Assembly (NCBI GenBank): GCA_963760795.1
Contig: CAVXEP010000019.1
Coordinates: 224,001 to 288,000 of the forward strand
Direction: 5' to 3'
DNA length: 64,000 nt
DNA from: an uncultured delta proteobacterium
GTDB lineage: Bacteria > Desulfobacterota > Binatia > UBA9968
Below are positions 9,125 to 58,151 of this stretch, one piece after another; within the stretch, counting starts at the first letter, position 1; each line of letters starts with the position of its first letter. The position numbers were made by a program, and so were the translations under genes. The notes beneath the pieces were generated by a model, which saw only the letters and a program-made list of their open reading frames with translations, had not been told where the DNA came from and searched no databases.

Positions 9125-10370
9125 GCTGCGGGCTGTAGGTGACGCGGTAAATCGCGCCGGCGAAATCGTCGGAGATCAACATCGAACCGTCTTTCATGAC
9201 GTGGACGTCGACCGGCCGGCCCCAGTATTCGTTGTTGTTAAGAAAGCCTGTGATAAATGGCTGCACGGATTTTACCGTGCCGTCGACGTTCAACTTCGCG
9301 ACAACGATATCGCCGCCGATTTTCTTGGTGCGGTTCCACGAGCCATGGCGGGCGATGAAGAGGGCGTTGCGGTATTCGCGGGGAAACATGGTGCCGGTGT
9401 AGAAGCGCAGGCCGAGGGCGGCGCTGTGCGGCCCCATCAACGCCACCGGCGGGGTGAATTCGTCGCAGGAGCGGCCCCAGCCCATCTCGCGGTCGGTGAA
9501 GTTGCCTTGGTGACAGTAGGGAAAGCCGAAGTGCTGGCCGACTTTGGTGACGCGATTCAATTCATCTTCCGGCAAATCTTCCGACAGCCAGTCGCGGCCG
9601 TTATCGGTGAAGTAGAAATCTTTGGTGATCGGATGCCAGTCGAAGCCGACGGAGTTGCGCACGCCGCGGGCGAACACTTCTGCGCCGCTGCCGTCAAGAT
9701 TGATGCGGCGGATCTGGGCATTTTCCGCGGGCGGTTCGCAGATATTACACGGCGCGCCGACGTTTATGTAGAGCTTGTTGTCCGGACCAATGGCGATGAA
9801 CTTCCAACCATGGGACTGGTGATTGGGCAGGTCGCTGTAGATGACCACCGGCTTGCCGGGATTGTCGAGGTTGTCTTCGATTTTCTCCAGCTTGGAAATT
9901 TTCGTGCCCTCGCCGATGTAGAGCGTGCCGTTGTGATAGGCGAGGCCGTTGGGGCGGTCCAGGCCGGAGGCGATGACCTTGGCTTCGCGCTTGCCGCTGC
10001 GCTCGACGACGGCGTAGACTTTGTCAAGTTGGCGGTTGCTGACGAACACCGTGCCTTTATCGCCGATGCGCAACGAGCGGGCATTGGCGATGCCGCTGAT
10101 GTAAACCTCGAGCTTGAAGCCCTTGGGCATCTTCAGCTGGCCGATCTGTAATTTCTCCGCCGGTGTGGCAAACGGCGGCTGCGGTACACCGCGCAAAGTT
10201 TTCGCGACCTCCGCATTGGGAATGTCTGGACGGCCGGGCACCGTCGTCGGCGCCGGCTGAACATTGGGCGCAGGTTTTTCTTGGGACAGTGAGATTGCCG
10301 GCGCACCCATCGACAAAACGCCGAGGATGGCGGCGACGGTCGTCCGCAACAAGTTCGGGAATGAGGTCAT
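9111..10370 (-). CDS. PQQ-dependent sugar/sorbosone dehydrogenase family protein
   Basis: GPDNKLYINVGAPCNIC, GVRNSVGFDWHP, TDNGRD, FGFPYCH, HGSWNR, GRPVDV; SD GAGGAGG before the ATG at 10370. Confidence 0.9.
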   Translation of the reverse strand: MTSFPNLLRTTVAAILGVLSMGAPAISLSQEKPAPNVQPAPTTVPGRPDIPNAEVAKTLRGVPQPPFATPAEKLQIGQLKMPKGFKLEVYISGIANARSLRIGDKGTVFVSNRQLDKVYAVVERSGKREAKVIASGLDRPNGLAYHNGTLYIGEGTKISKLEKIEDNLDNPGKPVVIYSDLPNHQSHGWKFIAIGPDNKLYINVGAPCNICEPPAENAQIRRINLDGSGAEVFARGVRNSVGFDWHPITKDFYFTDNGRDWLSEDLPEDELNRVTKVGQHFGFPYCHQGNFTDREMGWGRSCDEFTPPVALMGPHSAALGLRFYTGTMFPREYRNALFIARHGSWNRTKKIGGDIVVAKLNVDGTVKSVQPFITGFLNNNEYWGRPVDVHVMKDGSMLISDDFAGAIYRVTYSPQLASR

Positions 10371-10524
10371 GGCGTGCCTCCTCAATAATGTTTTTGTTTT
10401 TGTCGAGAACGAGGTGCGACAAGAAAATAGGCATTTCGCCGCAACATTGCAAGTAGAAATTTTTACATCCTTCCGTGCGGCGGCGGGCAGTTCGGTCCCG
10501 CACGGCTAGATAGCAAACGGATGT

Positions 10525-11037
10525 TTACGGTCGCTTGGGCAGGTTTTTCATCATGTCGTTCATGTTGATGTCAGGCATGCCAGGCATGGAGATGTCGCCC
10601 GGCTTCTGGCCCGGCTTGCAAGCGCCCAGCCATTTGGCTTCCATCGTCGATGCAGACTCTTTCATGCCGTGCAGCGGCGGCTCGTAGGTCGATTTGATGT
10701 CGGCCTTATAACTAGAGTCGAATTGACCGGTGAAAACGCCCCTGGTCGTCGCCGTGCTGCCGCTCATCTTGCACACCGATTCGGTGATAAGTTTGGTGCC
10801 TTCGCGGCGGAATTCGTTCTTGGAGCAGGATTGTTTTTCCGTTCCGGCCATATTGTTTTTCATCATGTCGTCGGATTTTTCGTCGACGCATTGTTGCATG
10901 GTCTGGCTGCCCTTGGCGCTGTTGCTCGACACGGTTATTTCCCATAGGCCGGATTTGCGTTTGGGCATGTCGGAGGTGGCAGCGACAGCGCCACCCGCAG
11001 TAGCGAGTAGCGTGACAATCAAAGCGAGAGTTCTCAT
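10525..11037 (-). CDS. DUF3617-like secreted protein
   Basis: Signal peptide, MPKRKSGLWEIT, QCVD, and AKWLGACKPGQKPGD. Confidence 0.8.
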   Translation of the reverse strand: MRTLALIVTLLATAGGAVAATSDMPKRKSGLWEITVSSNSAKGSQTMQQCVDEKSDDMMKNNMAGTEKQSCSKNEFRREGTKLITESVCKMSGSTATTRGVFTGQFDSSYKADIKSTYEPPLHGMKESASTMEAKWLGACKPGQKPGDISMPGMPDINMNDMMKNLPKRP

Positions 11038-11116
11038 AGCGGTCTCCTAACGTTAATTTGGCGAATTATAGCGGTGTATTGAAACATGCTCGCCGACCGA
11101 CAAGGTGAATGGGTGG

Positions 11117-12097
11117 CTAGATCGCCGCCGGCTGGTCCAGCTCAAAACCGAGATCGCGGATCATCTGGTGCGCGTCGGTGGCGTCTTGGCCGGGCGTGGT
11201 CAAGTAGCCGTTGACAAACATCGAGTTGGCTGGATAGAGGCTTAGCGGCTGCAGCGAGCGCAAGTTTACTTCGCGGCCGCCGGCGACGCGGATCTCTTTG
11301 GTCGGATTGACGAAGCGGAACAGGCACAGCGTCTTCAAGCAGCGCTGCGGCGTCAATTCGCGTTTCTCCTCGAAGGGCGTCTTGGGAATTGAATGCAAAA
11401 AATTTACCGGGATCGAGTCGATGCCCATGGCACGCAGCGTCATCGCCAGGTTGATGATGTCGTCGTCGCTTTCGCCCATGCCGATGATGCCGCCGGAGCA
11501 GGTGCCGATGCCGGCGCTCTTGACGCTCTCAATCGTCGCCACCCGATCGTCGAAGGAATGGGTGGTGACGATGTCGGCGTGGTGTTCGCGGCTGGTATTT
11601 AAATTATGATTGACCCGGCCGACGCCGGCGGCGGCGAGCTTCCGGGTCTTGTCGTCATTCATCAAGCCCAGCGAGCAGCAGACGTTCATGCCGGTCTGGG
11701 CGCGAATCTCGCGCACCGCCGCGGTGATGTCGTCGATTTCTTTGTTGGTCGGGCCGCGGCCGCTGTTGACGATGCAAAAGCGTACGGCGCCGGCTGCTTT
11801 GGCCTGGCGCGCGCTTTCGACCAGCTTGTCCTTGGACATGAAAGTGTACTTGTCGACGGGGGCTTCGGAGACCGAGGACTGCGAACAGTAGTGGCAGTCT
11901 TCCGGGCACAGGCCGCTCTTGGCGTTCTGCAAGACATGGATCTGCACGCGCTTGCCGTAGTAGTGGTGGCGCACTTTGAAGGCGGCGCTCAAGATTTCCG
12001 GTAGCTGTTCGTCCGGTGCGTTCAATACTTCACGCAGTTCCTCCCGCTCGGGTAGAATGCCTTGCAATGCTTTGTCCGCCAGTCGCTGAAAATCCAT
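11117..12097 (-). CDS. bioB: Biotin synthase (radical SAM)
   Basis: NAKSGLCPEDCHYCSQS, NHNLNTS, CSGGIIGMGE, SIPVNFL, IRVAGGRE, GYLTT; SD GGAGGA before the ATG at 12097. Confidence 0.96.
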   Translation of the reverse strand: MDFQRLADKALQGILPEREELREVLNAPDEQLPEILSAAFKVRHHYYGKRVQIHVLQNAKSGLCPEDCHYCSQSSVSEAPVDKYTFMSKDKLVESARQAKAAGAVRFCIVNSGRGPTNKEIDDITAAVREIRAQTGMNVCCSLGLMNDDKTRKLAAAGVGRVNHNLNTSREHHADIVTTHSFDDRVATIESVKSAGIGTCSGGIIGMGESDDDIINLAMTLRAMGIDSIPVNFLHSIPKTPFEEKRELTPQRCLKTLCLFRFVNPTKEIRVAGGREVNLRSLQPLSLYPANSMFVNGYLTTPGQDATDAHQMIRDLGFELDQPAAI

Positions 12098-12322
12098 GCC
12101 GTCCTCCAAAACTAGCAAGTTTCTAGCATGCGAGGTGTAGCCATGCAATCTGCGGGTGGCTGGAAGGTAGTAATACTTCTGTAGATTTCGCTACTTAGGT
12201 GCGATCTTCAGCGTGCGGTTAAAAGACCCGGCAGTTAACCACATGCTCGTCAGTTTGCGCGGTAAGCCATTGATCGGCATCCGTTCGATTCAAAAGCATA
12301 GCTGACAACTATGCGAATTTTT

Positions 12323-12745
12323 TTATAAGTCGGTCATCACCTGGTGATAGTGGCCGAGAACGAATATGAACCCGGCCAAGACGAAGTGAAAAATGATTGG
12401 AATGACGTCGCCGAACCAGCGCATCTCGGGATGGAGAATCATGGTCAGAGCATAGCGCAGGATCATCAGTCCGGCATAGGCGCCGGCAAATTTTATCAGG
12501 AATTCCGCCCAGTGGGGGCGCACGACGGCGAAGGTGCCGGTGCCGCGCCAGACTTCACCGGTGATTTTCACCATCAGCATCAACATGAGAAGTTGGATGA
12601 TCAACAGTGAGGAGTAGGGAATCACGCCGGAAAACCATTGCTTCATAGCCGGTAGCCAGGAAATGCCGACAAAGGCGACCAGCGCTTGTCCCAAGACCCG
12701 GCACGCGAACAAAAACGTTATTAGGGCTAGGAGCGGTCCGTGCAT
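12323..12745 (-). CDS. Hypothetical membrane protein (~4 TM)
   Basis: Hydrophobic 140-aa ORF with W.SG.IPY and IPIIFHFVLA, starting 7 nt after the GH3 stop. Confidence 0.7.
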   Translation of the reverse strand: MHGPLLALITFLFACRVLGQALVAFVGISWLPAMKQWFSGVIPYSSLLIIQLLMLMLMVKITGEVWRGTGTFAVVRPHWAEFLIKFAGAYAGLMILRYALTMILHPEMRWFGDVIPIIFHFVLAGFIFVLGHYHQVMTDL

Positions 12746-12752
12746 TCTCTTG

Positions 12753-14437
12753 CTACTTGCACCCGTGCGTTGAGGCCCCGCTGAGTTCAATCACGCGTGT
12801 AATTTCGTCGGTTGCTTGCGGTGTCGTGCTGAGCAGTTGGGCTTTGAACTGAGTGTCGCGAGCGCCGCGGTGGAGTGCGGCGCTCGCCTGACGTTCGTAC
12901 CAGCCGGGCGGCATCAGGCAAAGCACCGGCGGCTTGAGACGCTGGGATGCGCGTTTCTGAGCGTATTCGATATTGAGCTGGGCAAGGTTTTGATCCAGCG
13001 CGGCGAGCAATTGCCTGAGCGCGTCGTCGCTTGGATTCGCGCCGTCGAATTCGATTGGGAATGAGTAGCGCGATTCTTCCGCGTCGGCGATTCCGCGGTA
13101 GTGTCGCGGCGTGATACCGGCGAGCGCTTGCGCCAGTTCCATCGCCTGGATGACCTGATTGACGTGGAGTTTCTCGCCGGTGATGTTGGTGAAATCGCGG
13201 CCTTTGCGGACAAATTCGAGCAGCGGGGTTTGCCGAAAGAATCCCGCGACGCGCACCACATCGTTGATATCGTAGCGGTACAAACCGCCTGGCGTGGTGA
13301 GGATGAGATAATAACTCTCGCCGGTTTTCAATTCCGCGCAGGTCAGCGTTGCCGGTTGTGGACTGTCGATTTCCGCTTCGGGAATGAACTCGTAAAAATT
13401 GCCGTTCAAATCAGGGATGCCGGCGAACCCGGAGTCGGATATCGGCAAGGTCATCTGCGCCTCGCTCGCCATATAGCCTAAATCGCGCACCGGCATGGAC
13501 TCGCCGAACCAGCGGTGCAGTTCATTCAAGCGCACACCGACCGTGCCGCCTTTCCAGCAACCGATCAATTGCAGTTGTGGCCAGTAATCCATGGGACGCA
13601 GGGCGCCGTATTGGTTCGCCAGCCGTTCGAGCTCGAGCCGCGCGGGCGGGATTTTTCTCGAGTTGCGCTGCGAGCTTTTGCCGCACCGCGCCGGGAATAT
13701 GCCAGCGCTCGCTGATGGTGCCGTCGCGAATGTCGCGGATGATTTCAGATTTATTATTGTCGGCGATTTCGACCAGGCGCAGAATCGTGCTCGGATTGGG
13801 CGTGCCGAGAAACGAGATTGGCTGCGCCAACGCCAACACGCATGATCAGGTAGTACTTGGCGGCGAAGTCTTTCACTTCGGCGACCTCGTAGGGTAGGGC
13901 GAAGGCGTTCTGAATCCAGCGTGGACTGCTCTGATAAATCAAGCCTGAGGCGGCGCCGTAGGGAATATTGCCGGCGGTTTTCCCTTCTTGGGCGGAACTG
14001 ACGACGCCGAGCATTTTGCCGTCGAACAAGCCGGGATGATCGAGGTTGGCGCGGTAGTACCAAAGGCGCGTAAGTCGACGGTGGTTGGCGCGGCTGTTCT
14101 CGGTCACCGGGATCAGCTTGGGTGCGCCGGTGCTGCCGCTGGTCAGCGTGAACATCTCGACTGGCGCTTCGGTCAAGACCTGAGCTTCGCCATTCTCGGC
14201 ACGCTCGACATAGGGGCGAAGCCGTTCATAGTCGCCAATGGCGACCCGCTCGCGGTAGTCCGCCAAGCTGCGAATCGCCGCGAAGCCATGATCCTTGCCA
14301 AAGGCGGTTCCGCGGTTGCGCTGAATGATGTCGAGCAATAGCCGGTTTTGCACCGTTGCCGGAACGGCGGACAATTTTTCCCAGCTGCTCCAAAGACGGC
14401 CGGTGACGAAGGCCGCTGCTTTGACGATCACGCTCAT
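12753..14437 (-). CDS. GH3 auxin-responsive-promoter family acyl-adenylate ligase, frameshifted twice
   Basis: GH3 motifs FTLTSGSTGAPKLIP, GYMASE, LYRYDINDVV, TGEKL are spread over ORFs 13754-14437, 13522-13839 and 12753-14063; shifts at about 13840 and 13640. Confidence 0.87.
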
Positions 14438-14441
14438 GGGT

Positions 14442-16308
14442 TTAACGCCGCAATTCGATTTTCTCGACGGTGAGTCGTTCGAGGGCTTCTTCCTTGACGG
14501 TGACGCTCAAGCCGCGGCTTTTCAGCAGTGGCGCGCGGCCGCCGAGGCCGAAGGCGACGTTGTCGAACGTGATGTCTTCCGACAACAGCCAGGTGCCGAA
14601 GGATCCTTCAGCACCGGCTAACTCGGGCACATGGGCCGCGAAAGTTCGGCCGGCGGCCGATAGGATGCCGGTCTCGCCGACCTGAGCGCCCACTTGGATT
14701 TTGATGCCGGCTTCCTGCGCAAGTTTAGCAATCGCCAGACTGCCGGTGATGCCGCCGTTTTTTGACAGACGAATGTTAAATAGATCGCAGGCTTTTTCTG
14801 CGATCAAGCGGCGCGCCTGCTCGACGGTGACCAGCGATTCGTCGGCCATGACCGGGATGGCGCACTGGGCGCGCACTTGTTTCATGCCATCGATATCGTC
14901 AGCCGCCACTGGCTGTTCGATTACGGCGAGTTTAAACAGCGCCAGCTGCTTCAAATGTTCAACTGCTTGCGCCGCGTTCCAAGCGCCGTTGGCGTCGGCG
15001 CGCAGTTCAACTTTGCTGCCCACCGCTTGACGCACCGCGTTCAGGCGCGCGGCGTCATCTGGCGTGCCGACTTTGATCTTGATCTGTTTGAGGCCCAATT
15101 GCGCCATGCGCTTGGCCAACGCCGCGGCGTCCTTCGGCGCATCGGCGGAGATCACGCCGCTGTAGACGACCTCGAAACGCGCCGGCGGAAGATAGTCCGC
15201 CAAAGCGCTATGATCCGTGCGCAGGTTCCAGTCGAGCAGCGCCAACTCGACGGCGCAAAACGCCGCATTCCAGGCAGTGACGCCATTGTTTGATTGCGGA
15301 AGTCCGCGTCCAGTCCGGCTGCAGCGACTGCAACTGCTCGATGGTCTGCCAGCCGGGGAAAAACGTTTGTTGAAAGATCCTTGGCGCAAGGAAATCGCGG
15401 ATCCGCGCGATCATCGATTCAGTGGTCTCGCCGGTGACGTAGACGCGCGGTAACCCTTCGCCAAAGCCGCTACGGCTGTCGCTGCCGGTGATTTTTACAA
15501 TTACGGCGTCGCTTTCGTCGCGGCTATGCAGCGCGTGGCTAAAGGCTTGGTGAAACGGAATGCGCAGGCGATAGATGGTGAGCGCGTCGACGCGCTGGGG
15601 CCCGACTGCTTTGCTGCGGGTTTTTAGCTTCGAGCTCGGCGGAAAATAATGGCGGCAGAAAAGCTGGTCGCCGAGAGTGAAGCCAGCGATCTGGTCGAAT
15701 AGCGAGTCGGAGATCTGATGAAACTCGCTGTAGTCTTGGATCACCGTGATCGCTTCTTCGGCGTGGCGGATATCGACTTCGGAATGAAGCTCGAACCAGC
15801 GTAGGGCGGCGCCCGCAATGGCATAGTTATCACACAGCGCGTTGGCCAGTTCGCTGGAGCAGCGCGACAGCATGAACTCGAAGCTCATGGTTTCGAGCAG
15901 CACCGACAGGCAGAGCTCGCGCAACGTCGCCACCGGCACGCGGGTGGCGCAAACCAGCGCGACGCGCCGGCGCGCGTCGGCGATCAGCTGATCGATTTCA
16001 TCGTTAGCGAAGCCGATGGCGCGAGCCATTTCCAAGAGCAGCTGGGAGTGGGGCGGCTCATGTTCCGACCGGCCCATTTCTTCGAGCAGGTTCTCTTTCA
16101 ACATCTCCGCGGCCGACGACGGCAGCGCGGCGAAACAAAGCGCGACGATATGCGATGACAGATAATGGGTGCGAAAGATATTGCGCAAAAACTCGTAGGC
16201 GGTCAGCATGCCCGCGGCGCCGCCGACGAGGTCGCGATATTCGCGGGCTTGCGTGAAATCGTTGGTGGCTTGCTCGAAGTATTTAACGATCTGTTGCGCG
16301 GCGACCAT
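14442..16308 (-). CDS. Fusion of heme-oxygenase-like diiron oxidase (HDO/CADD-like) and enolase-superfamily (muconate cycloisomerase-like) enzyme; one frameshift near 15300
   Basis: N-terminal ENLLEEMG..PPH, LLE...FE, WFELHSEVDIRH. Same frame continues into the enolase capping domain (LRIPFHQAFSHA, GFGEGLPRVYVTGET). Barrel motifs KIKVG, ADANGAW, IEQP, MADES follow the shift. SD GGAGGT precedes the ATG at 16308. Confidence 0.82.
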
Positions 16309-16356
16309 GGTCACCTCCGATGCTGGTTGGGCAGCGGTTGAAGCTCGATGGCCATT

Positions 16357-19300
16357 CTAAGCGATTGCTTTTTCCAAGGCCATCGCTTTGACTCTTTTCA
16401 GATCGGCTTTGCCTGAGCCGAGGATGGGAATCTCGTCGATGGCGTGGAGATCTTCGCGCTTGGGAACCCACAGCTTGGGCAATGCGGATTTGTTGAGCTG
16501 GTCCCATAGCTCCTCGCGGCTGACGCCGTTCTTGGCGTAGAAAACCACCAGCCGCTCACCGCGCTGTTCGTCCGGGATCGCAGTCACCACCGATGCCGGG
16601 CTGCCGAGTAAGTCGTTGATCATCTCTTCGATCTTCATGTGCGGCACCATCTCGCCGCCGATCTTGCTGAAGCGCGACAAGCGGTCGGTGATGGCGATGA
16701 AGCCGTCCTCATCGATGGTCGCGATATCGCCAGTGACATACCAGCCTTGGCGCATCGCTTGATCGGTTAGGTTCTGCTGATTCAAGTAGCCGAGCATGAC
16801 GTTAGGTCCTTTGACGAGCAGCAGCCCTTCTTCGCCTGGGCCGAGGGTCTCGCCGCCATCGGGATCGATCACCTTGGTCGCGACGCCTGGGAGCGGATGG
16901 CCGACCGTGCCGGGCTTGTGGCCGGTCTGTTTTTCCTTGTCGTGGACAACATCGGGTGTGTTGACCGCGACCACGGGGGAGAGCTCCGTGCAGCCGTAGC
17001 CTTCGAGGAGGGTGATGCCGAATTTATCCTGATAACCCTTGGCGATCTGTGCGCGCAGCTTTTCCGCGCCGGAGATGACGTAGCGCAGCGAGGCGAACTG
17101 TTCCTTGGTGCAGCGGCGCCAGTAGCTGACGTAGAAGGTCGGCGTGCTGATCAATAATGACGCGCGGTATTTCTCGACGGTCTCACCAATAGTCTTGGCG
17201 TCGGTGGGATTGGGGTGATAGACCGCGCCGAAGCCGGTCAGCAGCGGCAACCAGATGGTCGCGGTGAAGCCGAAGGAGTGAAATAGCGGCAAGATGCCCA
17301 TGATACGATCCTGCGGCGTGAATTGAATCACCTGGCCGATCGCCTCGACGTTGGAAATAATGTTGTGGTGCGACAGCATCACGCCTTTGGGCGTGCCGGT
17401 GCTGCCGCTGGAAAATATGATCGTGGCGAGATCGTTGGAGCGCTGTTGTTTGCGCGCGCGGCGGTTGAGCCAACGCGCCGGCGTAACATAGGCTTTGACC
17501 GCGATGGCGAGTTTTCGCGCGCCGGTAAACGTCTGGCGGATCTCTTCAACAAAAACCATGCCGTCCATTTTCTCAAGATTGGCTTTGTCCAAAAACGTTC
17601 GCGAGGTGACGATGGTGGTGATCTTACATTGGGCCAGCGCCGCGGCCGTGGATTCTTTGCCGCCGGTGAAGTTCAAATTTACCGGCACTTTGCCCGCTAG
17701 CAGGGTGGCGATATTGACCAGCGCGCCGCCGACGCTGGCTGGCAGGATCACGCCAATCATCGACTGGCCGGCGCAATGGCTCCTCAGCCAGCGGCAAAAA
17801 AGCAGGCTGCCGATGAGCGCCTTGCCATAGGTGAGCTCTGTGCCGGTGGTGTCGGCCATGCAGAACCTCGACCAGTGGCGCTTGGCCATCTCGACGAACT
17901 TGGCGTGGAGCAGATCGCCGGGAAGCCGACGGTACTCCACCGCCTCGCTTTCCAGCTCTAAGATCGCGTTGCGCACCTGCACCACGGAGGAGGTTGGCGG
18001 CAGCGGCGCGCCAAACGACACCGTGACCGAGTAGGGGAATTGCATCGGCCACTTCCAAAAGAACTTACCGTCTTTGAAACTAAAGATGCTGCCCCAGAGC
18101 TGGTCCAAGTGCACCGGCACGATCGGAATATCCGAGCCCTCGACGATTTTCTCGAAGCCGCGCTTGAACGGCAGCAGCCGGCCGGTACGGCTGATCGCGC
18201 CCTCAGCGAAGATACACACCACATGGCCGTTTTCGAGTTCGTTTCTCGCCCGCTTGAGCGACTGGACGATGTCGCGCCGATTGTTCGCCGACACCGGGAT
18301 CGCATGCATGAGGCGGAAAAACCAGTTGAGCGATTTGAGATCGTAATACTCCCGATGCAGCATGAAGCGGACGAAGCGCGGCTGCGGCGCGCCGACCAAG
18401 AGCGCATCGACGAAGGAGACATGGTTGCAGACCAAGAGCGCCGGCCCCTGGAGCGGGATATTTTGTCCACCGACCACCCGGATGCGATAAAGCGTATTGG
18501 TCAACAGCCAGACGACGAAGCGGACGAAATAATCGGGCAGCAGGTACAAGATCGCCAGCGTGCCGGCGAGGGTAAACAGTCCGATCAGCAAGATGATGGT
18601 GTCGGGGGATAGTTGGAGCGGCGTTTTCAAGAACCAATGTAGCGCCGCTGCCAGGGCGATGCCGATGGTGTTCAGGAAATTATTGGTCGCGATCAATTGG
18701 CCCTTTTCCTCTTTGCCGCTACGTTGTTGCAATAGCGCGTTGAGCGGCACGGCGAACAGGCCGGCGGCAAAGCCGAGCAGCATCAAGGCCAGTGCAGTGT
18801 GCGGATAGGACGGTGCCGCCCAGGCGACCAGGGCAAGGCAAATGCCCATGCCCACCGAGCCGAGGGGTACCAAGCCCAATTCGATATGGTCGCCGGAGAG
18901 TTTGCCGGCGGCGAGACTGCCGATGCCGATGCCGATCGCCAAGAAAGTCCCCAATAGGCCGATGTGAAACTCATCGAGCTGCAACAGCTCCTTGCCGAAA
19001 AAAAGAATATTGATATTGACCAGCGCGCCGAGAAACCAAAAGTAAGAGATGCCGAGGACGGTAAACCACAGCGCCCGTTCGCGTCGCAGCCGGCGCAGGC
19101 CATCGGTAATTTCGCCGAAGGGGTTCAAGTTGAGCAGCTTGGTCGACCCCGAAGCCGGCACCCTGGCGATGCGCAGGCTGGTAAGATAACCGGCGATGGC
19201 GATGGCGATCATGATCAGGCCGATGCGCGGCAACTGGTTTTTCCAAACCGAGAAGATCGCGCTGCCCACCGACGTCCCCAGAATGATCGCCATGAAGGTG

Positions 19301-19749
19301 CTCATCTCCAACAAGCCGTTGCCGCGCGACAGTTCTTTATCCGGCAGCATTTCCGGCAAGATGCCGTACTTGGCGGGGCTGAAGAAGGCCGAGTGCAGGC
19401 CCATCAAGAAAACCGCCGCGAGCATGGGCCGGATGTCCGCGAAGTAGAATGACACCAGGACGAAAATCATGATGGCGATTTCGGCCGCTTTCACCGCCAC
19501 CAGGATTGTCCGCTTGCTATAGACGTCGGCGAGATGGCCGGCATAACCGGAAAACAGCGCCGACGGCAGGATAAATAGGATGGCGATCAGTTCGACGTAG
19601 AAATCGCCGCCGTGCCCGGCCAAGCTCAGGGCGACGAACGAGACCACGATTTTTAAGAAATTGTCATTGAATGCACCTAAGAACTGGGTGCAGAAGAAGG
19701 CAAGGAATCCCGGCTGTTTGAGCGTGACGGTGTAGTTGCCGTTATTCAT
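16357..19749 (-). CDS. aas: Acyl-[ACP]--phospholipid O-acyltransferase / acyl-ACP synthetase with N-terminal LplT-like MFS domain
   Basis: TQFLGAFNDN (MFS), NHVSFVD and FAEGAISRTG (PlsC), FSSGSTGTPKG and EGYGCTE (adenylation); 1130 aa. Confidence 0.93.
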   Translation of the reverse strand: MNNGNYTVTLKQPGFLAFFCTQFLGAFNDNFLKIVVSFVALSLAGHGGDFYVELIAILFILPSALFSGYAGHLADVYSKRTILVAVKAAEIAIMIFVLVSFYFADIRPMLAAVFLMGLHSAFFSPAKYGILPEMLPDKELSRGNGLLEMSTFMAIILGTSVGSAIFSVWKNQLPRIGLIMIAIAIAGYLTSLRIARVPASGSTKLLNLNPFGEITDGLRRLRRERALWFTVLGISYFWFLGALVNINILFFGKELLQLDEFHIGLLGTFLAIGIGIGSLAAGKLSGDHIELGLVPLGSVGMGICLALVAWAAPSYPHTALALMLLGFAAGLFAVPLNALLQQRSGKEEKGQLIATNNFLNTIGIALAAALHWFLKTPLQLSPDTIILLIGLFTLAGTLAILYLLPDYFVRFVVWLLTNTLYRIRVVGGQNIPLQGPALLVCNHVSFVDALLVGAPQPRFVRFMLHREYYDLKSLNWFFRLMHAIPVSANNRRDIVQSLKRARNELENGHVVCIFAEGAISRTGRLLPFKRGFEKIVEGSDIPIVPVHLDQLWGSIFSFKDGKFFWKWPMQFPYSVTVSFGAPLPPTSSVVQVRNAILELESEAVEYRRLPGDLLHAKFVEMAKRHWSRFCMADTTGTELTYGKALIGSLLFCRWLRSHCAGQSMIGVILPASVGGALVNIATLLAGKVPVNLNFTGGKESTAAALAQCKITTIVTSRTFLDKANLEKMDGMVFVEEIRQTFTGARKLAIAVKAYVTPARWLNRRARKQQRSNDLATIIFSSGSTGTPKGVMLSHHNIISNVEAIGQVIQFTPQDRIMGILPLFHSFGFTATIWLPLLTGFGAVYHPNPTDAKTIGETVEKYRASLLISTPTFYVSYWRRCTKEQFASLRYVISGAEKLRAQIAKGYQDKFGITLLEGYGCTELSPVVAVNTPDVVHDKEKQTGHKPGTVGHPLPGVATKVIDPDGGETLGPGEEGLLLVKGPNVMLGYLNQQNLTDQAMRQGWYVTGDIATIDEDGFIAITDRLSRFSKIGGEMVPHMKIEEMINDLLGSPASVVTAIPDEQRGERLVVFYAKNGVSREELWDQLNKSALPKLWVPKREDLHAIDEIPILGSGKADLKRVKAMALEKAIA

Positions 19750-19760
19750 TGTTGCTGGCT

Positions 19761-19789
19761 AATTTACTCGGCTCCGCGCGGTTCGGCAA
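19761..19789 (-). promoter_or_regulatory. Putative sigma70 promoter of the aas operon
   Basis: TTGCCG-N17-TAAATT, ending 11 nt before the aas ATG. Confidence 0.5.
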
Positions 19790-19844
19790 GGTCGAAGCCA
19801 CGCCAATCCCGTCTATTCGGTTGCGCCTTGGTACAACCAGGCGC

Positions 19845-19873
19845 TTGCGTAAACGTGATGAAATTCACATAAT
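19845..19873 (+). promoter_or_regulatory. Putative sigma70 promoter of pgeF (leaderless spacing)
   Basis: TTGCGT-N17-CATAAT-N6-ATG, no SD. Confidence 0.55.
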
Positions 19874-19879
19874 CTGCCC

Positions 19880-20653
19880 ATGGAATTGACTCATTTAACA
19901 GTCCCGCAGTGGCAGAAGTACGACGGTTTGCTGCATGGCTTCACGGGCCGGCGCGGCGGCAGGAGCGTCGGACGCTATGCCGGGCTCAACGTTTCCTACC
20001 GCGTCGGCGACGATAACAAAGTGGTCAGCCAAAACGTTTGCGATGTGAAGCTGGCGATGGGTATCCACGACGGCAAGATCGTTACCATGCAACAGGTCCA
20101 TGGCGATAACCTCATCGAGGTCACGGACAAACAGACGAAAGAAGCCGGCGCAGCCGACTCCATGGTGACCGCCGAGAACGGCGTCTTTCTCGGTGTGCTC
20201 ACGGCGGACTGCGTGCCGCTGTTGTTCATTGCACCGAAACAACGGCTGGCCGCGGCGGTCCACGCGGGCTGGCGCGGCACGCTCGCGGGGATTGCCTCGA
20301 AGACCGTCGACTATTTTATGAGCCGCTACAATGTCGGAGCAGGCGACTTGGAAGTGGCGCTCGGTCCGTCCATCGGCGTGTGCTGCTATGAGGTCAACGA
20401 CGACGTCGCGACACCGCTGATGAAAAAATGGGGCGCGTTGACGACGCCGAGCATCGCAATGAAAGACGGCAAGCCCCATATCAATTTGAGCAGGCTCAAT
20501 CGCGATATACTGCGCGCCGCCGGCGTGCCCGGCACGCAACTCTTTCAAATCGGCCCCTGCACCGGCTGCGCCGCCGATGATTTTTTTTCTTACCGCCGCG
20601 AAGGGGGGGAGACCGGCCGGCAGATCGGTGTGGTCGGTTGGCAGGCGACTTAA
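19880..20653 (+). CDS. pgeF: Peptidoglycan editing factor PgeF / YfiH laccase-domain protein
   Basis: HGFTGRRGG, QVHG, LTADCVP, HAGWRG, GPSIGVCCYEV, FFSYRR. Confidence 0.93.
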   Translation: MELTHLTVPQWQKYDGLLHGFTGRRGGRSVGRYAGLNVSYRVGDDNKVVSQNVCDVKLAMGIHDGKIVTMQQVHGDNLIEVTDKQTKEAGAADSMVTAENGVFLGVLTADCVPLLFIAPKQRLAAAVHAGWRGTLAGIASKTVDYFMSRYNVGAGDLEVALGPSIGVCCYEVNDDVATPLMKKWGALTTPSIAMKDGKPHINLSRLNRDILRAAGVPGTQLFQIGPCTGCAADDFFSYRREGGETGRQIGVVGWQAT

Positions 20654-20963
20654 CGTCTTGGTCGTTATATCTTCCGCAATAGCAACAATATCGGGACTGT
20701 CCTGACGCGGGATACCGCCGTGACAAATCTATAAGCGAGGCGATGGAGGTTACGCCGACGGATCACTCGTGCGAGGTGAAATTTGCGAGAGCGTGGTTAT
20801 ATCAGCGGTGCCGAAAATCCAGAAGTCTTTGCGTGTTCCATCAATAACTCTCGTTGTCTCGGCTTGAGGGCCTTGGCGATCGCGCTTACCGGCCGGTTTC
20901 GGGGCGCCCCCTATACTGGATGCCCGGCTGGACTGCTCTCATCGTGCGCGACACCGTTTGCAG

Positions 20964-21317
20964 TTAACGAAGGATATTAACATGACGTTCCTGCTCTTTT
21001 TGAAACTTGTAAAACTCGGATTCGGGAATCCCCAAGATTGTCAGCGCGTGGCGTAATCTAGCGTCTTCATTATTGCTGTCCATAAATAGTTCTTGTGCCG
21101 TGCTGTGAGCGATTGGCAGAGATTTACGCAAGCCGACAAGGGTAGCGGGCGCCATTTCCGCTGAGGAAAATTTAGCGCCCCAAGCGGTCCGACTTGTTGC
21201 TGTTCGGTTGATGGTATAGCCATGGCGGTATCTGAGCCGACCACGCGTTATTTCTCGACAAATTGTTTCCTCTCTAGAAACTGCGTCTACAGACCTCACT
21301 TGCTTGCTTGAGCCCAT
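20964..21317 (-). CDS. Possible orphan hypothetical protein
   Basis: 117-aa ATG-initiated ORF in a less GC-rich gap; no motif recognised. Confidence 0.25.
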   Translation of the reverse strand: MGSSKQVRSVDAVSREETICREITRGRLRYRHGYTINRTATSRTAWGAKFSSAEMAPATLVGLRKSLPIAHSTAQELFMDSNNEDARLRHALTILGIPESEFYKFQKEQERHVNILR

Positions 21318-21529
21318 CTAAAATCGGCCCATAATCAGGCCGATGGAAATCTCGGCTTGGACAACAGCAGGCCAGCAATCCGGTCCGTTGAAGTTGTCTT
21401 GCGTGATCCGCTGAAGGCGCCGAAGTGCGGCAAGCGTCGGGATTACCTCACTTTCATTATGCACTCACTTATATTAAGGAATAGGCGTCATATTCGAATC
21501 GTTGTCAAAAGATTTGGGGGTTCAGCGCT

Positions 21530-22492
21530 ATGAAAATCTCCCGTCGACATTTTCTCACTAAACTCTCCGTCGGTGTCGCCGGTTTATCGCTGGCGCGCGA
21601 TTTCGCGTCGGCGCAGGTCAAGGGCAAGGTGGGTTACATGAAGATCGTCGACAATGCGGCGATGTTCATGGCGATGGAAAAAGGTTTCTTCAAAGCGGAA
21701 GGCATCGAATTGGAAACCGTGCCGATGGCCGGCGGCGCGGTGATTGTCCAGGGCGTGACATCGGGCGATTTGCAATTTGGCTGGACCAACGTGATCTCGC
21801 TCTACCAGGCCCATGCCGAAGGTTTCGACTTCAAGCTCGTCGCCGGCGGCGCTACCAACATTCGCGGCAGCAATGAAACCCATGCGATCGTCGTCGGCAA
21901 GGATTCGCCGATCAAAAGCGCCAAGGATCTCGAAGGCAAGACCGTCGCGGTCAACACGCTTAACAACATTGTCCATCTGATGGCGCTCGCCTGGGTCGAC
22001 AAAAACGGCGGTAACTCGACCAAGGTTAAGTTCGTCGAGATTCCTTTCCCGCAAATGGAGCCATCGTTAATCGCGGGCAAAGTTGACGCCATTAGCGTGC
22101 ACGAACCCTTCGCCGCGGTGGCGGCACGCCGGCCGGAGGCCCGCGTGCTGGCGAATCCCTGGGGCGACGTCCTGCCGCGCTTTTTGATCGCCAGCTGGTT
22201 CGCTTCCGACAAATGGATTCAGAAGAACCGCGGCGTCGCGCAGGGGTTTGTGCGCGCGATCAATCGCGGCGTCGATGCCCTCCGCGCCGATAAAGAAGGC
22301 GCCCGCGCGGCGATGATCAAGTGGGCCGGCCTCAACCCCGATTTCGCCGGCAAGATCGGCTTGCCGGAATTTGAAAAATCGATTGCCGAAAAAGATGTCC
22401 AAGTGACCATGGACTTGACCTACAAGTACAAGATGATCTCCAAGCCGCTTAAAGCCAAGGATGTGCTCAGCGACCTGGCGGGAAAAGCGTAA
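21530..22492 (+). CDS. NitT/TauT (SsuA/THI5-like) ABC substrate-binding protein with Tat-like signal
   Basis: SRRHFL signal, [38 protein letters not shown]. Confidence 0.9.
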
Positions 22493-27419: not shown

Positions 27420-28508
27420 ATGTTACTGATCAATAATCAGGAAGTGGAAAAACTGTTTTCGATGAAAGATTGTCTCGCCGCCCTTGAAGACGGCTACGAC
27501 GATCTGATGATTGGCGACGCGGTCTATCGGCCGCGTTTGGATTTGTGGATGCCCTGCGAACGGCCCGACGGCTACTGGCGCTGGGGCACCATGGAAGGCG
27601 CGAGTCGCAAGATCGGCGTGTTCGCGATCCGTATGAAATCGGATGTGGTTTACTGGCCCGGCGGCGAGACCGAAGAAAAGTATTGCATGCAGCCCGGCAC
27701 CTGGTGCGGTTTGGTGATGGTCTTCAGCGTGCGCAACGGCGAACCGCTGGCGATGATCAATGACGGTTTGCTGCAACATATGCGAGTCGGCGGCTGCGCC
27801 GGTCTCGGCGTAAAATATCTTGCCCGCGAGGACGCCTGTGATGTCGGTATCTTCGGCTCCGGCGGCATGGCGCGCAGCTATCTGGAAGCGATTTACCAAG
27901 TGCGCAAGCTGCACAAGGTGAAAGTCTACAGCCCGACAAAGGCGAACCGCGATCGATTTGCCCAGGAGATGACCGGCAAACTCGACATCGAAGTCGTGGC
28001 GGTGGACGCGCCGGAAAAAGTCGTGCGCGACGCCGACATCGTGGCGACCTGCACGGACTCGACGCAAACGGTTTTCGACAACCCCGAATGGCTGAAAGAA
28101 GGCGCGCATATTACCTGCGTGCGCGCCTGCGAGGTCGGGCCCAAAGTGATCAAGCAATGCGACCTGTCGGTGAAGCTCGGCAGAAATACGATCGAAGCGA
28201 TGGACGAAGGCATGGTCCGTCTCCACGGCAACGTCGGCTACATCGCCGGCCAGCCGGAAGAGCGGGCGCGCATCCCCAATCCGGCGGTGGATAATTACAA
28301 GGGCGACTATTTCAAATACTTCATGGACGTGCGCTCCGGCAAGGTCCCCGGACGGCAGAACAATAAACAGGTGACTTTCTTCATCAACGCCGGCACCCAA
28401 GGACTGCAATTCGCCGCCTGCGCCGGCAAGGTGGTCGAGCTGGCGAAGAAAGCCAAGGTCGGTCGGGAGCTGCCGACGGAGTGGTTTTTACAGGATATCC
28501 GGGATTAA
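27420..28508 (+). CDS. Ornithine cyclodeaminase / mu-crystallin family protein
   Basis: GEPLAMINDGLLQHMRVG, YLAREDA, GIFGSGGMA, GLQFAA. Confidence 0.88.
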   Translation: MLLINNQEVEKLFSMKDCLAALEDGYDDLMIGDAVYRPRLDLWMPCERPDGYWRWGTMEGASRKIGVFAIRMKSDVVYWPGGETEEKYCMQPGTWCGLVMVFSVRNGEPLAMINDGLLQHMRVGGCAGLGVKYLAREDACDVGIFGSGGMARSYLEAIYQVRKLHKVKVYSPTKANRDRFAQEMTGKLDIEVVAVDAPEKVVRDADIVATCTDSTQTVFDNPEWLKEGAHITCVRACEVGPKVIKQCDLSVKLGRNTIEAMDEGMVRLHGNVGYIAGQPEERARIPNPAVDNYKGDYFKYFMDVRSGKVPGRQNNKQVTFFINAGTQGLQFAACAGKVVELAKKAKVGRELPTEWFLQDIRD

Positions 28509-37952: not shown

Positions 37953-40900
37953 TTACTTCATGGTGAAATCGACGCGGTTGGGTTTGCCTTTGAGCTTGGT
38001 TTGTTCCTCGTTGCTCAGCGGTTTGGCGGCGACGATGAACAGCCGGTCGGCGCCGAGGCCGCTAGCCAACAAGGCGTCGCGCACCGCTTGGGCGCGCTGA
38101 CTTGCCAATACCCCAAGGTCATCGTCAGTCGCTTTGGCATGTTGCATCATTAGTTTTTCCATCTCCGCCACCGGTAAGTCGACCGCCAGGCCGATTACGT
38201 TGCGCGGTTTGGGAAAGTTTTCTTCGCCATAGGCAGCTTTCAAATATTTCGCGTACTCGTCCTTGTCGAACTGAATGTCGTCGAGCGATCGTTGTGCTTG
38301 CCCCTGGCGCACCAGGTCGCGCAGCTTTTGCGCCTTGGCCTTGCGTTCGATGCCAACTCGCTTCAATCCTTCGAGATCGCTCACCGGATCGACCCTTCCG
38401 GTCAATTCCAAATTAATCGACGGGCGATTGTTGAGCCCCTTGGCCAGGGCGGCGATTTTAGACTGCGCGGCTTGATTCAAGTTGGCGCGGCCGTTGTCGA
38501 ATTCGACATAGCTCAACTCCTCGCCGCTGCCACCGCCGCCGCTGAACGCCGCGCCGAGCAGCGAGAAGGGCGCGGTGATGGCTCTGGTAAGTATGTTAAC
38601 GATCATGCGCCAGATAATGCCGCCGATGCTGAACTGCGGATCGTCCAGCGACCCGCTGATGGGCATATCGATGTCGATGACGCCATCGCGGTCCTTTAAC
38701 AGTGCCACGGCAAGCAGCACCGGTAGTTTAGTCGCATCGGGGCTTTCGATTCTGGGGCCGAAAGTGAGCTGGTTTAAAATGATTTTGTTTTGGGCGGTCA
38801 ACTTGCGATTCTCAAGTTTGTATTTGACGTTGAACGATAGCTTGCCTTTTTCGATACCATAACCGACGTAGCGCCCAGAATAAGGAGTCATCGGGCTCAG
38901 CTCGATCTCCTTGGCATCGGCGACTATGTCGAGAAATAAGTCTTTCGAGAGTGGGTTGAGCTTGCCTTTAATTTCCACCGGCGCGGCGTTGTCGAGCCGG
39001 GCTTTGAGGTCGATATCGCCGGGCGCCTCCGGCTTGAGCTCGGAAATCGTTCCCTGGACGCCGGTGAGATTGGCGTTGTAGTTGGGTTTGATGAAAAGGT
39101 CGCTGAAGTCAATGTTGCCGGCGGTCAAATTGATTTTACCGATGGTGATGGCTTTGTCCGTGCCGGTGGCGGGAGCACCTGCGGGGCCGGACTTTTCCGG
39201 TAATTGTTTCGCGGACTTCTCTGGCGGCGCCGAATCGTTTTTCTTTTCCTCATCCTGCGGCGTGAGTTTCTGCAGATTGATCTTACCGTCGGCGCCGAGA
39301 ATCAGCCGGGAGTAGAAATCGCCAAGATTGATCTCGCCGATGTTCAGCCGAAAAGGCTCGAGATTGAATTGGACGGCATTCAAGTTGAGGGATTTCCATT
39401 TGAGCAAGTCGCTGGAATTACTTTTTTCGACGGTCGCAAAGTCGGCGATGTCGAAGCTGCCGTCGTAATTTACTTTTGCCGGGCCGGCGCCGCTGGCATC
39501 GAAAACCAGATTGCCCTTGGTGCCAATATTGCCGCTGGTGAGCAAGAAGTGAACGCGGTCCTCTAGATAAGGCCAAAATGGCAGGACGTCGATCCCCTGA
39601 GCATCGACCTCCAGCTGAGCGGCAACGGGGCGAGTTCCAACAGTCCCGGCAAATTTCAATGTCCCTTTGTCGTTGATCGTGGCTTGGAACGTCGCTTTGC
39701 CTCGCGACTTTTCCACATTGGAAAAATTCTCGCCGCGGAGTGTTGTATTGGATACGACGATACGTGCCGGCGCCGCCAGGGATCGATCTTCGTAAACAAT
39801 TTTAAAACCGTTGAAAACCACACGCTTGGTTTCCACGGTCCAAGACGCCTGTTCGGCTTTCGCCGGCTGGTTGGTTGCGCTTTCAGAGCCGCGGGTCTTG
39901 ATCAGGCGGGCGTAGCTGATCGTCCCGTCCTTTTCCCGTTGGACATAGCCGTTGCCATCCCGGGTTTCCACGGAACCGATGACGACCGAACGCTTGCCGA
40001 CGTCGACCGTGGTGTCTTTCACGGTCAGGAGCGGAACGCGCCAAAGGGGTTCGGATTCTCCCGGCACGTCCATGCGCAATGATCGCAGGGCTGCAGTCAG
40101 CTCGGTAAGTTTTACCTCCGGCTCGTCTGCTTTCTGCGCGAAGGCGACCTGAGTCGAAAGGTCGAGAAGCCCGTCCTTGAATTCGACTCCGAGCAAGTCT
40201 TCGTAATACGGGCGGAGCTTCTTGAGTTGCAGTGCCCGGATCTCCAGTTTGCCGTCTGCCAGCAGCGGCGTCAGTTGGACGGTACCGGCATGAGAGAATG
40301 ACTCTTTTGCGTCAGAGTCAAACGACAGTTCGACATTGGCCTTTTTATCGGCTTCATTGTTGAGTCCCGTGACGTTGAGGCGGACATTGTCCAGGCGTGT
40401 CTTGTAGGGCTGCTGCGGTTGTTCGTCGTTGAAGTGGATCGTTGCGCCATCGACGGCGATCTCTGCAATTTGATACAGGAATGGCTTACCGTCGTCTTTT
40501 TTTGCCGTTTGCGGTTGCCGTTGCCGGTTGACTGTTGGTCGATGGCGTCACCAGATTGGCCAGATTGATTTCGCCCTTGCGATCGCGGCCGACGTGGAGT
40601 TCGAGGCCTTGGGACTTGATTGATTTGATCGTCGCTTTGCTGGCAAAGACGTCGAAGGATTCGACCACGACATCGAAGTTGGGCAGCTTGAGCAGCGGTG
40701 CGTCGCTTGTTTGCTGCATCTCCAACGCGTTGACGTTGAGATCGCCTGACAACGCCAGTACCGGCGCGGCTTTGGGCGCCGACTTGAAGCTTACGGTGAC
40801 CTTGCCGTTGAGTTGTCCCGAGGGCACTTTGAAATTAAGCGCCACCGGCGAGTATTCCAAAAATTTGGCGATCTCTAGTTTATCGATCTTGATCCCCAGC

Positions 40901-41592: not shown

Positions 41593-41652
41593 AGCAACCT
41601 TCGTGGGACTGAAACTTGAGGTGAACCTATCGCAGGGGTAGGTGCTTGTCCA

Positions 41653-42114: not shown

Positions 42115-42302
42115 GACAGCCTCACCTCCCGGTTAAGCGACGATATTATGGAAAGATTTTATTATGCACAAGCTGTTGGAAAGGTTTCGAAAGCCGCGAA
42201 TCTGAGGCAGAAACGGCGCTGAATCCTTATGGATGATTGTTGCGTCTCAGGAAATACTTAAGTACAAGCGTCTTTTCCCCTGACGGGAGCTGTACACAAA
42301 TT

Positions 42303-56600: not shown

Positions 56601-56607
56601 GCCGACC

Positions 56608-58140: not shown

Positions 58141-58151
58141 AGGATATCCCC

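Follow-up and report, generated by a model that had tools for sequence, protein, structure and literature searches.

The locus described here was found in a 64,000-nucleotide (nt) stretch of contig CAVXEP010000019.1 (the whole stretch being referred to as the window) from a soil bacterium of Binatia, an uncultured class of Candidatus Binatota. It was composed of four co-directional minus-strand genes (Table 1): aas, a fusion gene encoding a heme-oxygenase-like diiron oxidase (HDO) domain joined to an enolase-superfamily domain, a GH3 ligase gene, and a gene for a small membrane protein. A preliminary description of the window had presented these genes, separated by gaps of 48, 4, and 7 nt, as one operon for a candidate acyl-amide pathway; its coordinates and gaps proved correct on reading of the sequence, and its domain assignments agreed with the Pfam and NCBIfam matches. 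The same gene order recurred in related genomes, and it was thus not due to chance. The conserved unit, however, was a three-gene cassette (fusion, GH3, and membrane genes) inherited within Binatia, because these three genes stayed together in nearly every informative locus, while aas adjoined them in only part of the loci (see below).

Conservation and surroundings of the three-gene cassette

One scan of genome contigs with an alignment of 11 full-length fusions gave 25 loci (numbered with the prefix L), all of them from metagenome-assembled genomes (MAGs) labelled Candidatus Binatia, "delta proteobacterium", and the like. Linkage was counted by searches with the intact proteins of L015. The GH3 gene directly followed the fusion gene in 20/20 loci with enough downstream sequence (this count leaves out L013, L018, L020, and L024, which reached contig ends, and the remnant locus L025), and the membrane gene followed GH3 in 18 of the 19 informative loci, the contig of L005 ending too early. 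The aas gene was found directly upstream of the fusion in 18/25 loci, the exceptions being L005, L007, L010, L012, L014, L015, and L024. The co-localization anticipated by the preliminary description was hence conserved for the fusion, GH3, and membrane genes; its four-gene unit held for these three, but not for aas, whose place beside them was not fixed and was lost in one clade.

A FastTree tree was built from concatenated fusion and GH3 alignment rows of 21 sequences (L013, L018, L020, L024, and L025 were omitted for coverage below 0.8). Six of the seven loci lacking an adjacent aas formed one clade nested among the aas-adjacent loci, the seventh, L024, being too short for the tree. Two arrangements were met in this clade: (i) in L007, pgeF, aas, and bioB were contiguous and the cassette lay 4.3 kb away; and (ii) in L015-type loci, the cassette was located behind an ABC-2 exporter pair and before a class IV aminotransferase gene. 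Most simply, the tree is explained by an ancestral aas-adjacent order and a single relocation of the whole cassette that left aas behind. The flanking pgeF, NMT1-like, ABC, bioB, and DUF3617 genes were conserved as well as aas was, which amounts to general synteny. Since the cassette was translocated without it, aas is a frequent, ancestral neighbor rather than an obligatory cassette member, and its adjacency elsewhere is largely inherited synteny.

Three further observations were made on these loci. A class IV (D-amino-acid/branched-chain type) aminotransferase gene adjoined the cassette in the clade that had left aas (Table 1), whereas the window showed none. Synonymous divergence (dS) of the window from L001 was 0.37–0.46 for fusion and GH3, 0.27 for the membrane gene, 0.20 for aas, and 0.14 for bioB; the higher cassette values hint at recombination or at a separate history of the cassette. 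Finally, L013, which had the pgeF–aas–fusion order, was labelled Verrucomicrobiia, and other loci carried the labels Syntrophobacter sp. or Thermodesulfobacteriota; these labels probably reflect binning or naming differences instead of gene transfer, because gene order and identity matched those of the Binatia loci.

The aas product contained MFS_1 (residues 19–368), Acyltransferase (PF01553; residues 422–547), and AMP-binding (residues 622–989) domains, and it passed the equivalog model NF006386 for acyl-[ACP]--phospholipid O-acyltransferase over residues 10–1127 (1396.8 bits against a cutoff of 1221). Spacers between aas and fusion were read from the 130 nt upstream of the fusion ATG, within which the aas stop codon fell in most aas-adjacent loci; by eye, they measured approximately 45–60 nt in most of these loci and were longer in L016, L020, and L021.

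As for transcription, the preliminary description had placed one putative promoter before the four genes. A scan for the canonical sigma-70 consensus, the one consensus covered, gave no support to it: no match was obtained on either strand within the aas/pgeF intergenic region and no minus-strand site between aas and fusion. A pattern scan detected no terminator-like site on the minus strand of the aas–fusion spacer, and it recognized one hairpin beyond the membrane gene that likely marks the 3′ end of the transcription unit. Rfam models gave no match within 10000..22000 at E ≤ 0.1.

Table 1. Positions of the locus genes, spacers, and signals in the window, and of the class IV aminotransferase genes in related loci
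Feature	Position	Strand	Remarks
aas	19749..16357	-	1130 amino acids (aa), intact; MFS transporter (LplT-like) + PlsC-type acyltransferase + acyl-ACP synthetase
HDO/enolase fusion gene	16308..14442	-	Split into open reading frames (ORFs) 15208..16314 and 14442..15389
GH3 gene	14437..12753	-	Three frames: 13754..14437, short middle frame, 12753..14063
Membrane-protein gene	12745..12323	-	140 aa counted from ATG
aas–fusion spacer, 48 nt	16356..16309	-	GGAGG ribosome-binding site precedes fusion ATG
Fusion stop to GH3 ATG, 4 nt	14441..14438	-	Read from sequence
GH3 stop to membrane-protein ATG, 7 nt	12752..12746	-	Read from sequence
Terminator-like hairpin with T-rich tail	12314..12296	-	Pattern scan, consensus match only; 9 nt past membrane-gene stop
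aas/pgeF intergenic region, 130 nt	19750..19879	.	Divergent; sole obvious site for aas promoter
pgeF/yfiH, upstream	19880..20653	+	Divergent; TIGR00726, 164 bits against cutoff 141
bioB, downstream	11117..12148		TIGR00433, 393.7 bits against cutoff 225
Class IV aminotransferase, immediately downstream of cassette	L010:14149-15126, L012:4622-5083, L014:14154-15134, L015:14247-15233		
Class IV aminotransferase, 2.2 kb upstream of cassette	L007:6787-7779		

Domain families of the cassette proteins

The GH3 gene product is, by its domains and motifs, a member of the GH3 acyl-acid amido synthetase family. Its N, M, and C domains scored 166.8, 79.4, and 58.6 bits, respectively, in the window, and 226.6, 80, and 58.6 bits in the intact protein of L015, against a Pfam cutoff of 23.6. 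The three nucleotide-binding motifs were TSGSTGAPK, YMASE, and GLYRYDIND in the window, and their positions were mostly invariant, with the rest nearly so, across 16/16 aligned relatives; the motifs of AtGH3.11 are SSGTSQGRPK, YGSSE, and GLYRYRLGD (PMC12493201). The full length of an intact relative matched solved plant GH3 structures, with JAR1 at the top (E 1.4e-33) and GH3.6 at the lower end (E 2e-19).

A published bacterial counterpart is OlsH, a GH3-like enzyme that uses ATP to couple a free fatty acid to ornithine, giving N-acyl-ornithine (PMC12493201). It constitutes a precedent for the acyl-amide idea of the preliminary description, which had not cited it. The authors of that work anticipate further N-acyl amino acids as products of other GH3 homologues in bacteria (PMC12493201; PMC12971839), and the orders listed with OlsH homologues in a passage of a 2026 review (PMC12971839) do not include Binatia. 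Identity of the cassette enzyme with OlsH was rejected: the L015 protein gave 112.3 bits on the OlsH equivalog model NF052613, whose cutoff is 620, and the window pieces gave 61.7 and 59.2 bits.

The fusion protein displayed the layout HDO (approximately residues 1–226, corresponding to about 15631..16308), a linker of about 15 residues, and the enolase domain. The latter matched MR_MLE_C of Pfam at 174 bits and belonged to the muconate-lactonizing-enzyme (MLE) subgroup. A profile of the fusion family found its best solved relatives in 1jpm (L-Ala-D/L-Glu epimerase; E 5e-49), 2p88 (E 4e-48), 3jva (dipeptide epimerase; E 7e-48), and 3q45 (E 2e-46), followed by muconate cycloisomerases, o-succinylbenzoate synthases, and N-acylamino acid racemases. 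In alignment, 1jpm and the cassette domain agreed at KxK, at the positions of Asp, Glu, and Asp, and at the second Lys (IKIKVG/MKVKLG, RADAN, EQP, ADE, and SKNGG); in 1jpm these residues, i.e., KxK, three metal-ligand carboxylates, and the second Lys, have catalytic roles. True dipeptide epimerases carry in addition a motif that binds the N-terminal ammonium group. 2P88 is the structure of the NSAR2 family (PMC5368075), and BC0371, an N-succinyl-L-Arg racemase, clusters with Ala-Glu epimerases (PMC2948282).

The N-terminal part of the fusion matched PF14518 at 58.5 bits (cutoff 28.9), and by sequence its sole match was CADD/CT610 (E 2.5e-4), over the SxE and HxxxDxxH helices. It appears, from its alignment, to keep the candidate diiron-type ligands: E76/E77, H87, E139/E144, H175, D179, and H182 were invariant in 18/18 sequences. 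The AlphaFold2 (AF2) model of the domain was a helical bundle (mean pLDDT 78.7), and its top Foldseek matches were CADD, HrmI, a Pseudomonas aeruginosa FlcD-type protein, PqqC, UndA, RohS, and BesC; TM scores of 0.55–0.67, E values of about 1e-4 to 1e-2, and a probability of 1.00 were obtained for CADD, HrmI, UndA, and others. The matched HrmI structure had been co-crystallized with its N6-hydroxy-L-lysine product, and CADD acts on amino-acid residues (PMC11965152). On the CADD subfamily model TIGR04305, scores of 27.4 and 30.6 bits were far below the cutoff of 200.

The family of the HDO domain was small: with its profile, a search of 1.84 billion representative proteins reached only 128 clusters at E ≤ 0.001, of which 80 stayed at E ≤ 1e-10 and 36 at E ≤ 1e-30. 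Within the 17 of these 128 clusters that were scanned against Pfam, the fused form of 619–624 aa recurred, together with many stand-alone HDOs of 224–243 aa and two other architectures: (i) cluster P0304, a crotonase (ECH_1/ECH_2; enoyl-CoA hydratase) fused to a related HDO domain; and (ii) cluster P0318 from a divergent lineage, with an HDO N-terminal part joined directly to a GH3 part from about residue 200, resembling the remnant in L025 (see below). P0318 is probably a deletion chimera, and it gives a second hint of HDO–GH3 linkage. Relatives of the stand-alone P0243 were likewise stand-alone HDOs, of 235–239 aa with 36–44% identity in the cultured cyanobacteria Nodosilinea, Pseudanabaena, Halomicronema, Leptolyngbya, and Calothrix, and one of 276 aa with 47% identity in a Nitrospira MAG. 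A tblastn search of a plasmid collection for such stand-alone HDOs gave no match.

The membrane protein was predicted to consist of four long helices (AF2 pLDDT 83.7), with four predicted transmembrane helices, and it contained the invariant polar residues R16, Q20, Y44, Q51, R67, R97, Y98, R109, and H120. It matched no Pfam or NCBIfam family, only unnamed clusters of a protein atlas, and no structure of the PDB by Foldseek at E ≤ 0.001. Prediction of a complex of GH3 and the membrane protein gave a score of 0.00, which weighs neither way.

Frame breaks and selection

The reading frames of the fusion and GH3 genes of the window were broken by three single extra bases recognized in DNA alignments: (i) one in the fusion near 15299, in a variable loop of the capping domain, relative to 5/5 aligned relatives; (ii) one in GH3 near 13837, relative to 4/4 aligned relatives; and (iii) one in GH3 at 13636, likewise relative to 4/4. 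By tblastn, the GH3 gene fell into three pieces in frames -1, -2, and -3, and the frame change of the fusion was recovered in the same way. Intact relatives encoded fusions of 619–624 aa and GH3 proteins of 551–561 aa, and the relatives from short-read assemblies were intact.

Frame changes and in-frame stops were then counted as breaks with the intact L004 proteins as queries; pieces with less than 45% identity were dropped, the partial loci L020, L024, and L025 were left out, and the division into long-contig and short-read-type MAGs was inferred from contig names and sizes. In the long-contig MAGs together with the window, the cassette (43.3 kb) had 20 breaks and the flanks (65.7 kb) had 11, a total of 31 in 109 kb; the corresponding numbers for the short-read-type MAGs were 1 (42.2 kb) and 2 (48.0 kb), a total of 3 in 90 kb. 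Because the breaks followed assembly type and their positions differed from genome to genome, they point to sequencing or assembly error. The elevated rate was located in the fusion and GH3 genes of the window, L001, L002, L014, L019, and L021–L023; the membrane gene had 0 breaks.

The ratio of nonsynonymous to synonymous divergence (dN/dS) was estimated by the Nei–Gojobori method on five sequences (the window, L001, L019, L002, and L003). For the pair of window and L001, the fusion gave 0.17, GH3 0.25, and the membrane gene 0.09, with similar values in other pairs (0.09–0.15 for the membrane gene) and with 0.10 for aas and 0.11 for bioB as comparison. Given dN/dS of 0.09–0.25, the cassette is under purifying selection, with no sign of long-standing decay in these sequences. 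Since the short-read relatives were intact and dN/dS was low, the three breaks in the window are probably assembly errors or very recent mutations. Programmed frameshifting was tried as another explanation and rejected, the sites differing from those of the other broken copies and the short-read relatives reading straight through.

The preliminary description had named real frameshifts in a decaying cluster as one outcome that would overturn its view. The intact short-read relatives and low dN/dS speak against such decay, and for this genome it is doubtful that the cassette is a recently inactivated pseudogene array in which the insertions are real and nothing is made. Several observations nonetheless favor real inactivation and weigh against a working cassette. 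Within the long-contig MAGs, the number of breaks per kb was about 2.8 times as high in the cassette as in the flanks, which could be due to sequence context or to repeated real inactivation. Nine flanking genes tested in the window (about 11 kb) had 0 breaks, against three in the approximately 3.6 kb of fusion and GH3, and only two to four candidate breaks were seen elsewhere in the window, although detection outside the cassette, made there without homologue alignment, was less sensitive. None of the extra bases lay within a long homopolymer. Lastly, L025 harbored a true deletion remnant between aas and bioB (L025:9998-11235), in which fusion residues 119–189 ran directly into GH3 residues 309–555, followed by a partial membrane gene. 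The excess of breaks and this remnant indicate that the cassette is dispensable and decays in some lineages. For the window itself, the dependence of breaks on assembly type, the different break sites in every genome, and the equality of the window–L001 dN/dS with that of other pairs argue for an intact or only very recently broken cassette.

Two other putative frame breaks were noticed in the window, besides two weaker candidates. A DUF748/AsmA/YhdP-like gene at 37953-41652 (minus strand) was apparently split by one frame change near 40486-40547, its ORFs matching profile positions 7–347 and 444–1036. At 56497-58655 (plus strand), a biotin carboxylase ORF overlapped a biotin-lipoyl (BCCP) ORF in a different frame, with the junction near 58.1 kb; the overlap probably marks a further frame break, within a carboxylase subunit of the fused kind, and a carboxyltransferase gene at 54941-56491 lay directly upstream of the biotin carboxylase ORF. 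The window further contained two ornithine cyclodeaminase/mu-crystallin genes at 27420-28508 (plus strand) and 48636-49745 (plus strand), each near NMT1-like solute-binding genes, and lipid-related genes at 42237-42821 (plus strand) and 61835-63999 (plus strand), namely MlaC-like, beta-ketoacyl synthase, and, at the window end, KAS III genes; no link between these lipid-related genes and the cassette was seen.

Candidate function and comparison with known systems

The three-gene cassette is proposed to be a functional unit, comprising the HDO–enolase fusion, the GH3 ligase, and the four-helix membrane protein, that makes a modified acyl-amino-acid, a reading to which a probability of about 0.5 is given. 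A linked function is argued for by the 20/20 and 18/19 linkage, the move as a block in one clade, the HDO–GH3 joining in P0318, and the gaps of only 4 and 7 nt. The families, their catalytic residues, and the linkage were observed; the sequence of reactions, the molecules acted on, and a lipid product are proposed as follows. GH3 would join an acid to an amino acid, yielding an N-acyl amino acid with a free alpha-carboxylate; a fatty or otherwise hydrophobic acid is favored because of the OlsH precedent and the conserved membrane partner, and the acid may instead be small or aromatic. The enolase domain, whose nearest relatives act on N-acylated amino acids and which thus fits a GH3 partner making such products, would then take the alpha-proton of the conjugate, leading either to inversion to the D form or to elimination of a beta-substituent (after beta-oxidation). 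The HDO domain, being fused to the enolase domain, would act on the same substrate, its dimetal centre and O2 oxidizing the conjugate by hydroxylation, N-oxygenation, or desaturation/decarboxylation. The membrane protein would either hold the enzymes or their product at the membrane or act as an exporter of that product. The ancestral neighbor Aas may feed the cassette or further acylate its lipid, and it would not be needed for the cassette to persist; by analogy, its PlsC-type domain would parallel the second acylation of ornithine-lipid synthesis, OlsA being a member of the PlsC family.

The fusion invites a more specific and, at present, quite improbable version of this scheme, a two-step machine that oxidizes and then deprotonates the GH3 product: (i) a beta-hydroxylase plus an enolase-type dehydratase giving an N-acyl dehydroamino acid, or (ii) an oxidase plus an epimerase giving an oxidized N-acyl-D-amino acid. 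The crotonase of P0304 is a second enolate-forming, (de)hydratase scaffold, and by analogy it would fit an HDO clade habitually paired with an alpha-proton-abstracting partner. If this version were true, the fusion with its membrane protein would constitute a further route, specific to Binatia, by which amino-acid lipids or lipid-like signals are made, with no relation to OlsBA, OlsF, and OlsHI.

Besides the signs of decay discussed above, the following points count against the proposed unit. All loci came from one bacterial class, so that the linkage partly reflects shared ancestry, and L007 had no membrane gene, an opposite-strand CBS gene following GH3 instead. The GH3 protein remained far from the OlsH equivalog (see above), and no OlsI-like alpha/beta-hydrolase gene was found within or directly beside the cassette of the window, L015, and L007; in planctomycetes, OlsI is an O-acyltransferase encoded in one operon with OlsH. 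All NCBIfam equivalog cutoffs were missed by the enolase domain (NF041118, 101.5 bits against 500; NF011708, 96.8 against 343), and the MLE subgroup also holds cycloisomerases and dehydratases, so epimerization is one candidate outcome among several. The HDO matches were modest, and the model was built on a shallow alignment of 18 sequences with 59–86% identity. The data do not single out a fatty acid over an aromatic or small acid, and substrate and product are candidates only.

Alternative explanations differ in the members of the pathway and in its substrate. In one of them, which is unlikely, all four genes including aas form the pathway: GH3 would make a lyso-type N-acyl amino acid, the LplT-like domain of Aas would flip it, and the PlsC-type and acyl-ACP synthetase domains would add a second fatty acid, as OlsA or OlsI does. 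The position of aas directly upstream in 18/25 loci, mostly with a short spacer and without a terminator-like site, its ancestral adjacency suggested by the tree, and the presence of PF01553 are consistent with this, and O-acylation of the OlsH product was suspected by its authors to come from an Escherichia coli acyltransferase of the lysophosphatidic-acid type (PMC12493201). The cassette nevertheless resided without aas in seven loci, including L007, where aas stayed by pgeF and bioB; the other flanking genes were equally conserved, aas passed the cutoff of an ordinary housekeeping equivalog, and its lower dS (0.20 against 0.37–0.46) hints at a history separate from that of fusion and GH3. 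A second explanation, about as improbable, keeps the three genes and removes the lipid: the cassette would make or recycle a small water-soluble conjugate, its product being a dipeptide-like, D-amino-acid-containing, or peptidoglycan-peptide derivative, with a true dipeptide epimerase in the enolase domain and a GH3 whose acid is small or aromatic. The enolase domain indeed had its nearest solved relatives among dipeptide epimerases, those for L-Ala-D/L-Glu included, HrmI (with its N6-hydroxy-L-lysine product) and BesC belong to amino-acid pathways, CADD has amino-acid residues as its substrate (PMC11965152), and plant GH3 enzymes use aromatic and jasmonate acids; moreover, the class IV aminotransferase gene adjoined the cassette in five loci of the translocated clade, and a D-glutamate-cyclase-like gene plus an amidohydrolase gene lay upstream in L015-type loci. 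This explanation is opposed by the conserved, translationally close membrane protein that goes with the enzymes, by the restriction of the aminotransferase linkage to one clade and its absence from the window, and by the use of fatty acids in the sole characterized bacterial GH3-like enzyme found (PMC12493201).

It is very unlikely that the cassette serves catabolism or salvage, in which N-acyl amino acids or hormone conjugates would be taken up from the environment and broken down or re-used, GH3 having a part in re-conjugation. N-succinyl/N-acyl amino acid racemases do act on N-acylated amino acids and have a salvage role, and many solute-binding and ABC genes were found near Binatia-type loci; but GH3 enzymes are synthetases that consume ATP, the cassette had no conserved amidase or hydrolase, and the transport genes differed between the arrangements.

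The significance of such a unit would lie in the families that it brings together. A bacterial GH3 protein was tied to membrane aminolipid synthesis only in 2025, and most bacterial GH3 homologues, HDOs, and enolase-superfamily members have no assigned function; by fusion and tight linkage, the cassette joins one member of each and narrows what these three act on to a single common compound, an N-acylated amino acid, a question that three recombinant proteins would make accessible. With an HDO and an enolase-superfamily domain in one protein, two intensively investigated superfamilies would also gain a reaction pairing that is new to them. Soils are rich in Binatia, so a lipid or signal peculiar to this lineage would provide a useful handle on their biology and a possible biomarker. 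The statement of the preliminary description that no pathway with this combination had been described agreed with the open-access literature, in which neither an HDO–enolase fusion nor a cluster of GH3, HDO, and enolase genes was found, in Binatia or elsewhere, among the matches listed. That bacteria can have an acyl-amino-acid pathway dependent on GH3 has been known since 2025, and the new components here are the partners and the fusion architecture.

The comparison was applied to the known systems that resemble single components of the locus. The window aas shared its equivalog score and all three domains with the E. coli-type Aas/LplT of lysophospholipid recycling, and nothing sets it apart from a housekeeping Aas; its tie to the cassette was positional only and was lost in one clade. 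The HDO domain shared PF14518, the helical bundle, HxxxDxxH, and the Glu/His positions with CADD, HrmI, FlcD, UndA, RohS, BesC, and SznF, but it displayed 13–18% identity to known HDOs and its partners were new, namely the enolase-superfamily domain of the cassette and, in P0304, a crotonase. The dipeptide epimerases and N-succinyl-amino-acid racemase, to which the enolase domain was closest among solved structures, all remove the alpha-proton from N-acylated amino acids whose carboxylate is free; compared to 1jpm, the cassette domain had a longer capping-domain loop, and compared to the dipeptide epimerases, it was fused to an HDO, an architecture met only in the fusion family.

The plant GH3 enzymes (JAR1 and GH3.5/3.6/3.8/3.12/3.15) resembled the cassette GH3 in the full-length match, the three Pfam domains, and the similarity of GLYRYDIND to GLYRYRLGD, while the cassette enzyme was bacterial, resided in a putative operon with oxidative and epimerase-like partners, and had no link to hormone conjugation. 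The clusters for N-acyl dehydrotyrosines (PMC12479983) follow the same logic as that proposed here, an N-acyl amino acid being made and then oxidatively modified at its amino-acid part, but they use unrelated families: GNAT-type synthase, nitroreductase, and ThiF-like cyclase (PMC12479983), instead of GH3, HDO, and enolase. The closest parallel was the OlsH/OlsI pathway of Singulisphaera acidiphila (PMC12493201), which, like the putative operon here, has a bacterial GH3 family member among a small group of genes. OlsH forms an amide of an acid and an amino acid via ATP, without CoA or ACP, and the three GH3 motifs were likewise present in the cassette enzyme; the partners differ, OlsH being accompanied by OlsI, which is an alpha/beta-hydrolase, and the methyltransferase OlsG, and the cassette GH3 by the HDO–enolase fusion and the four-helix membrane protein.

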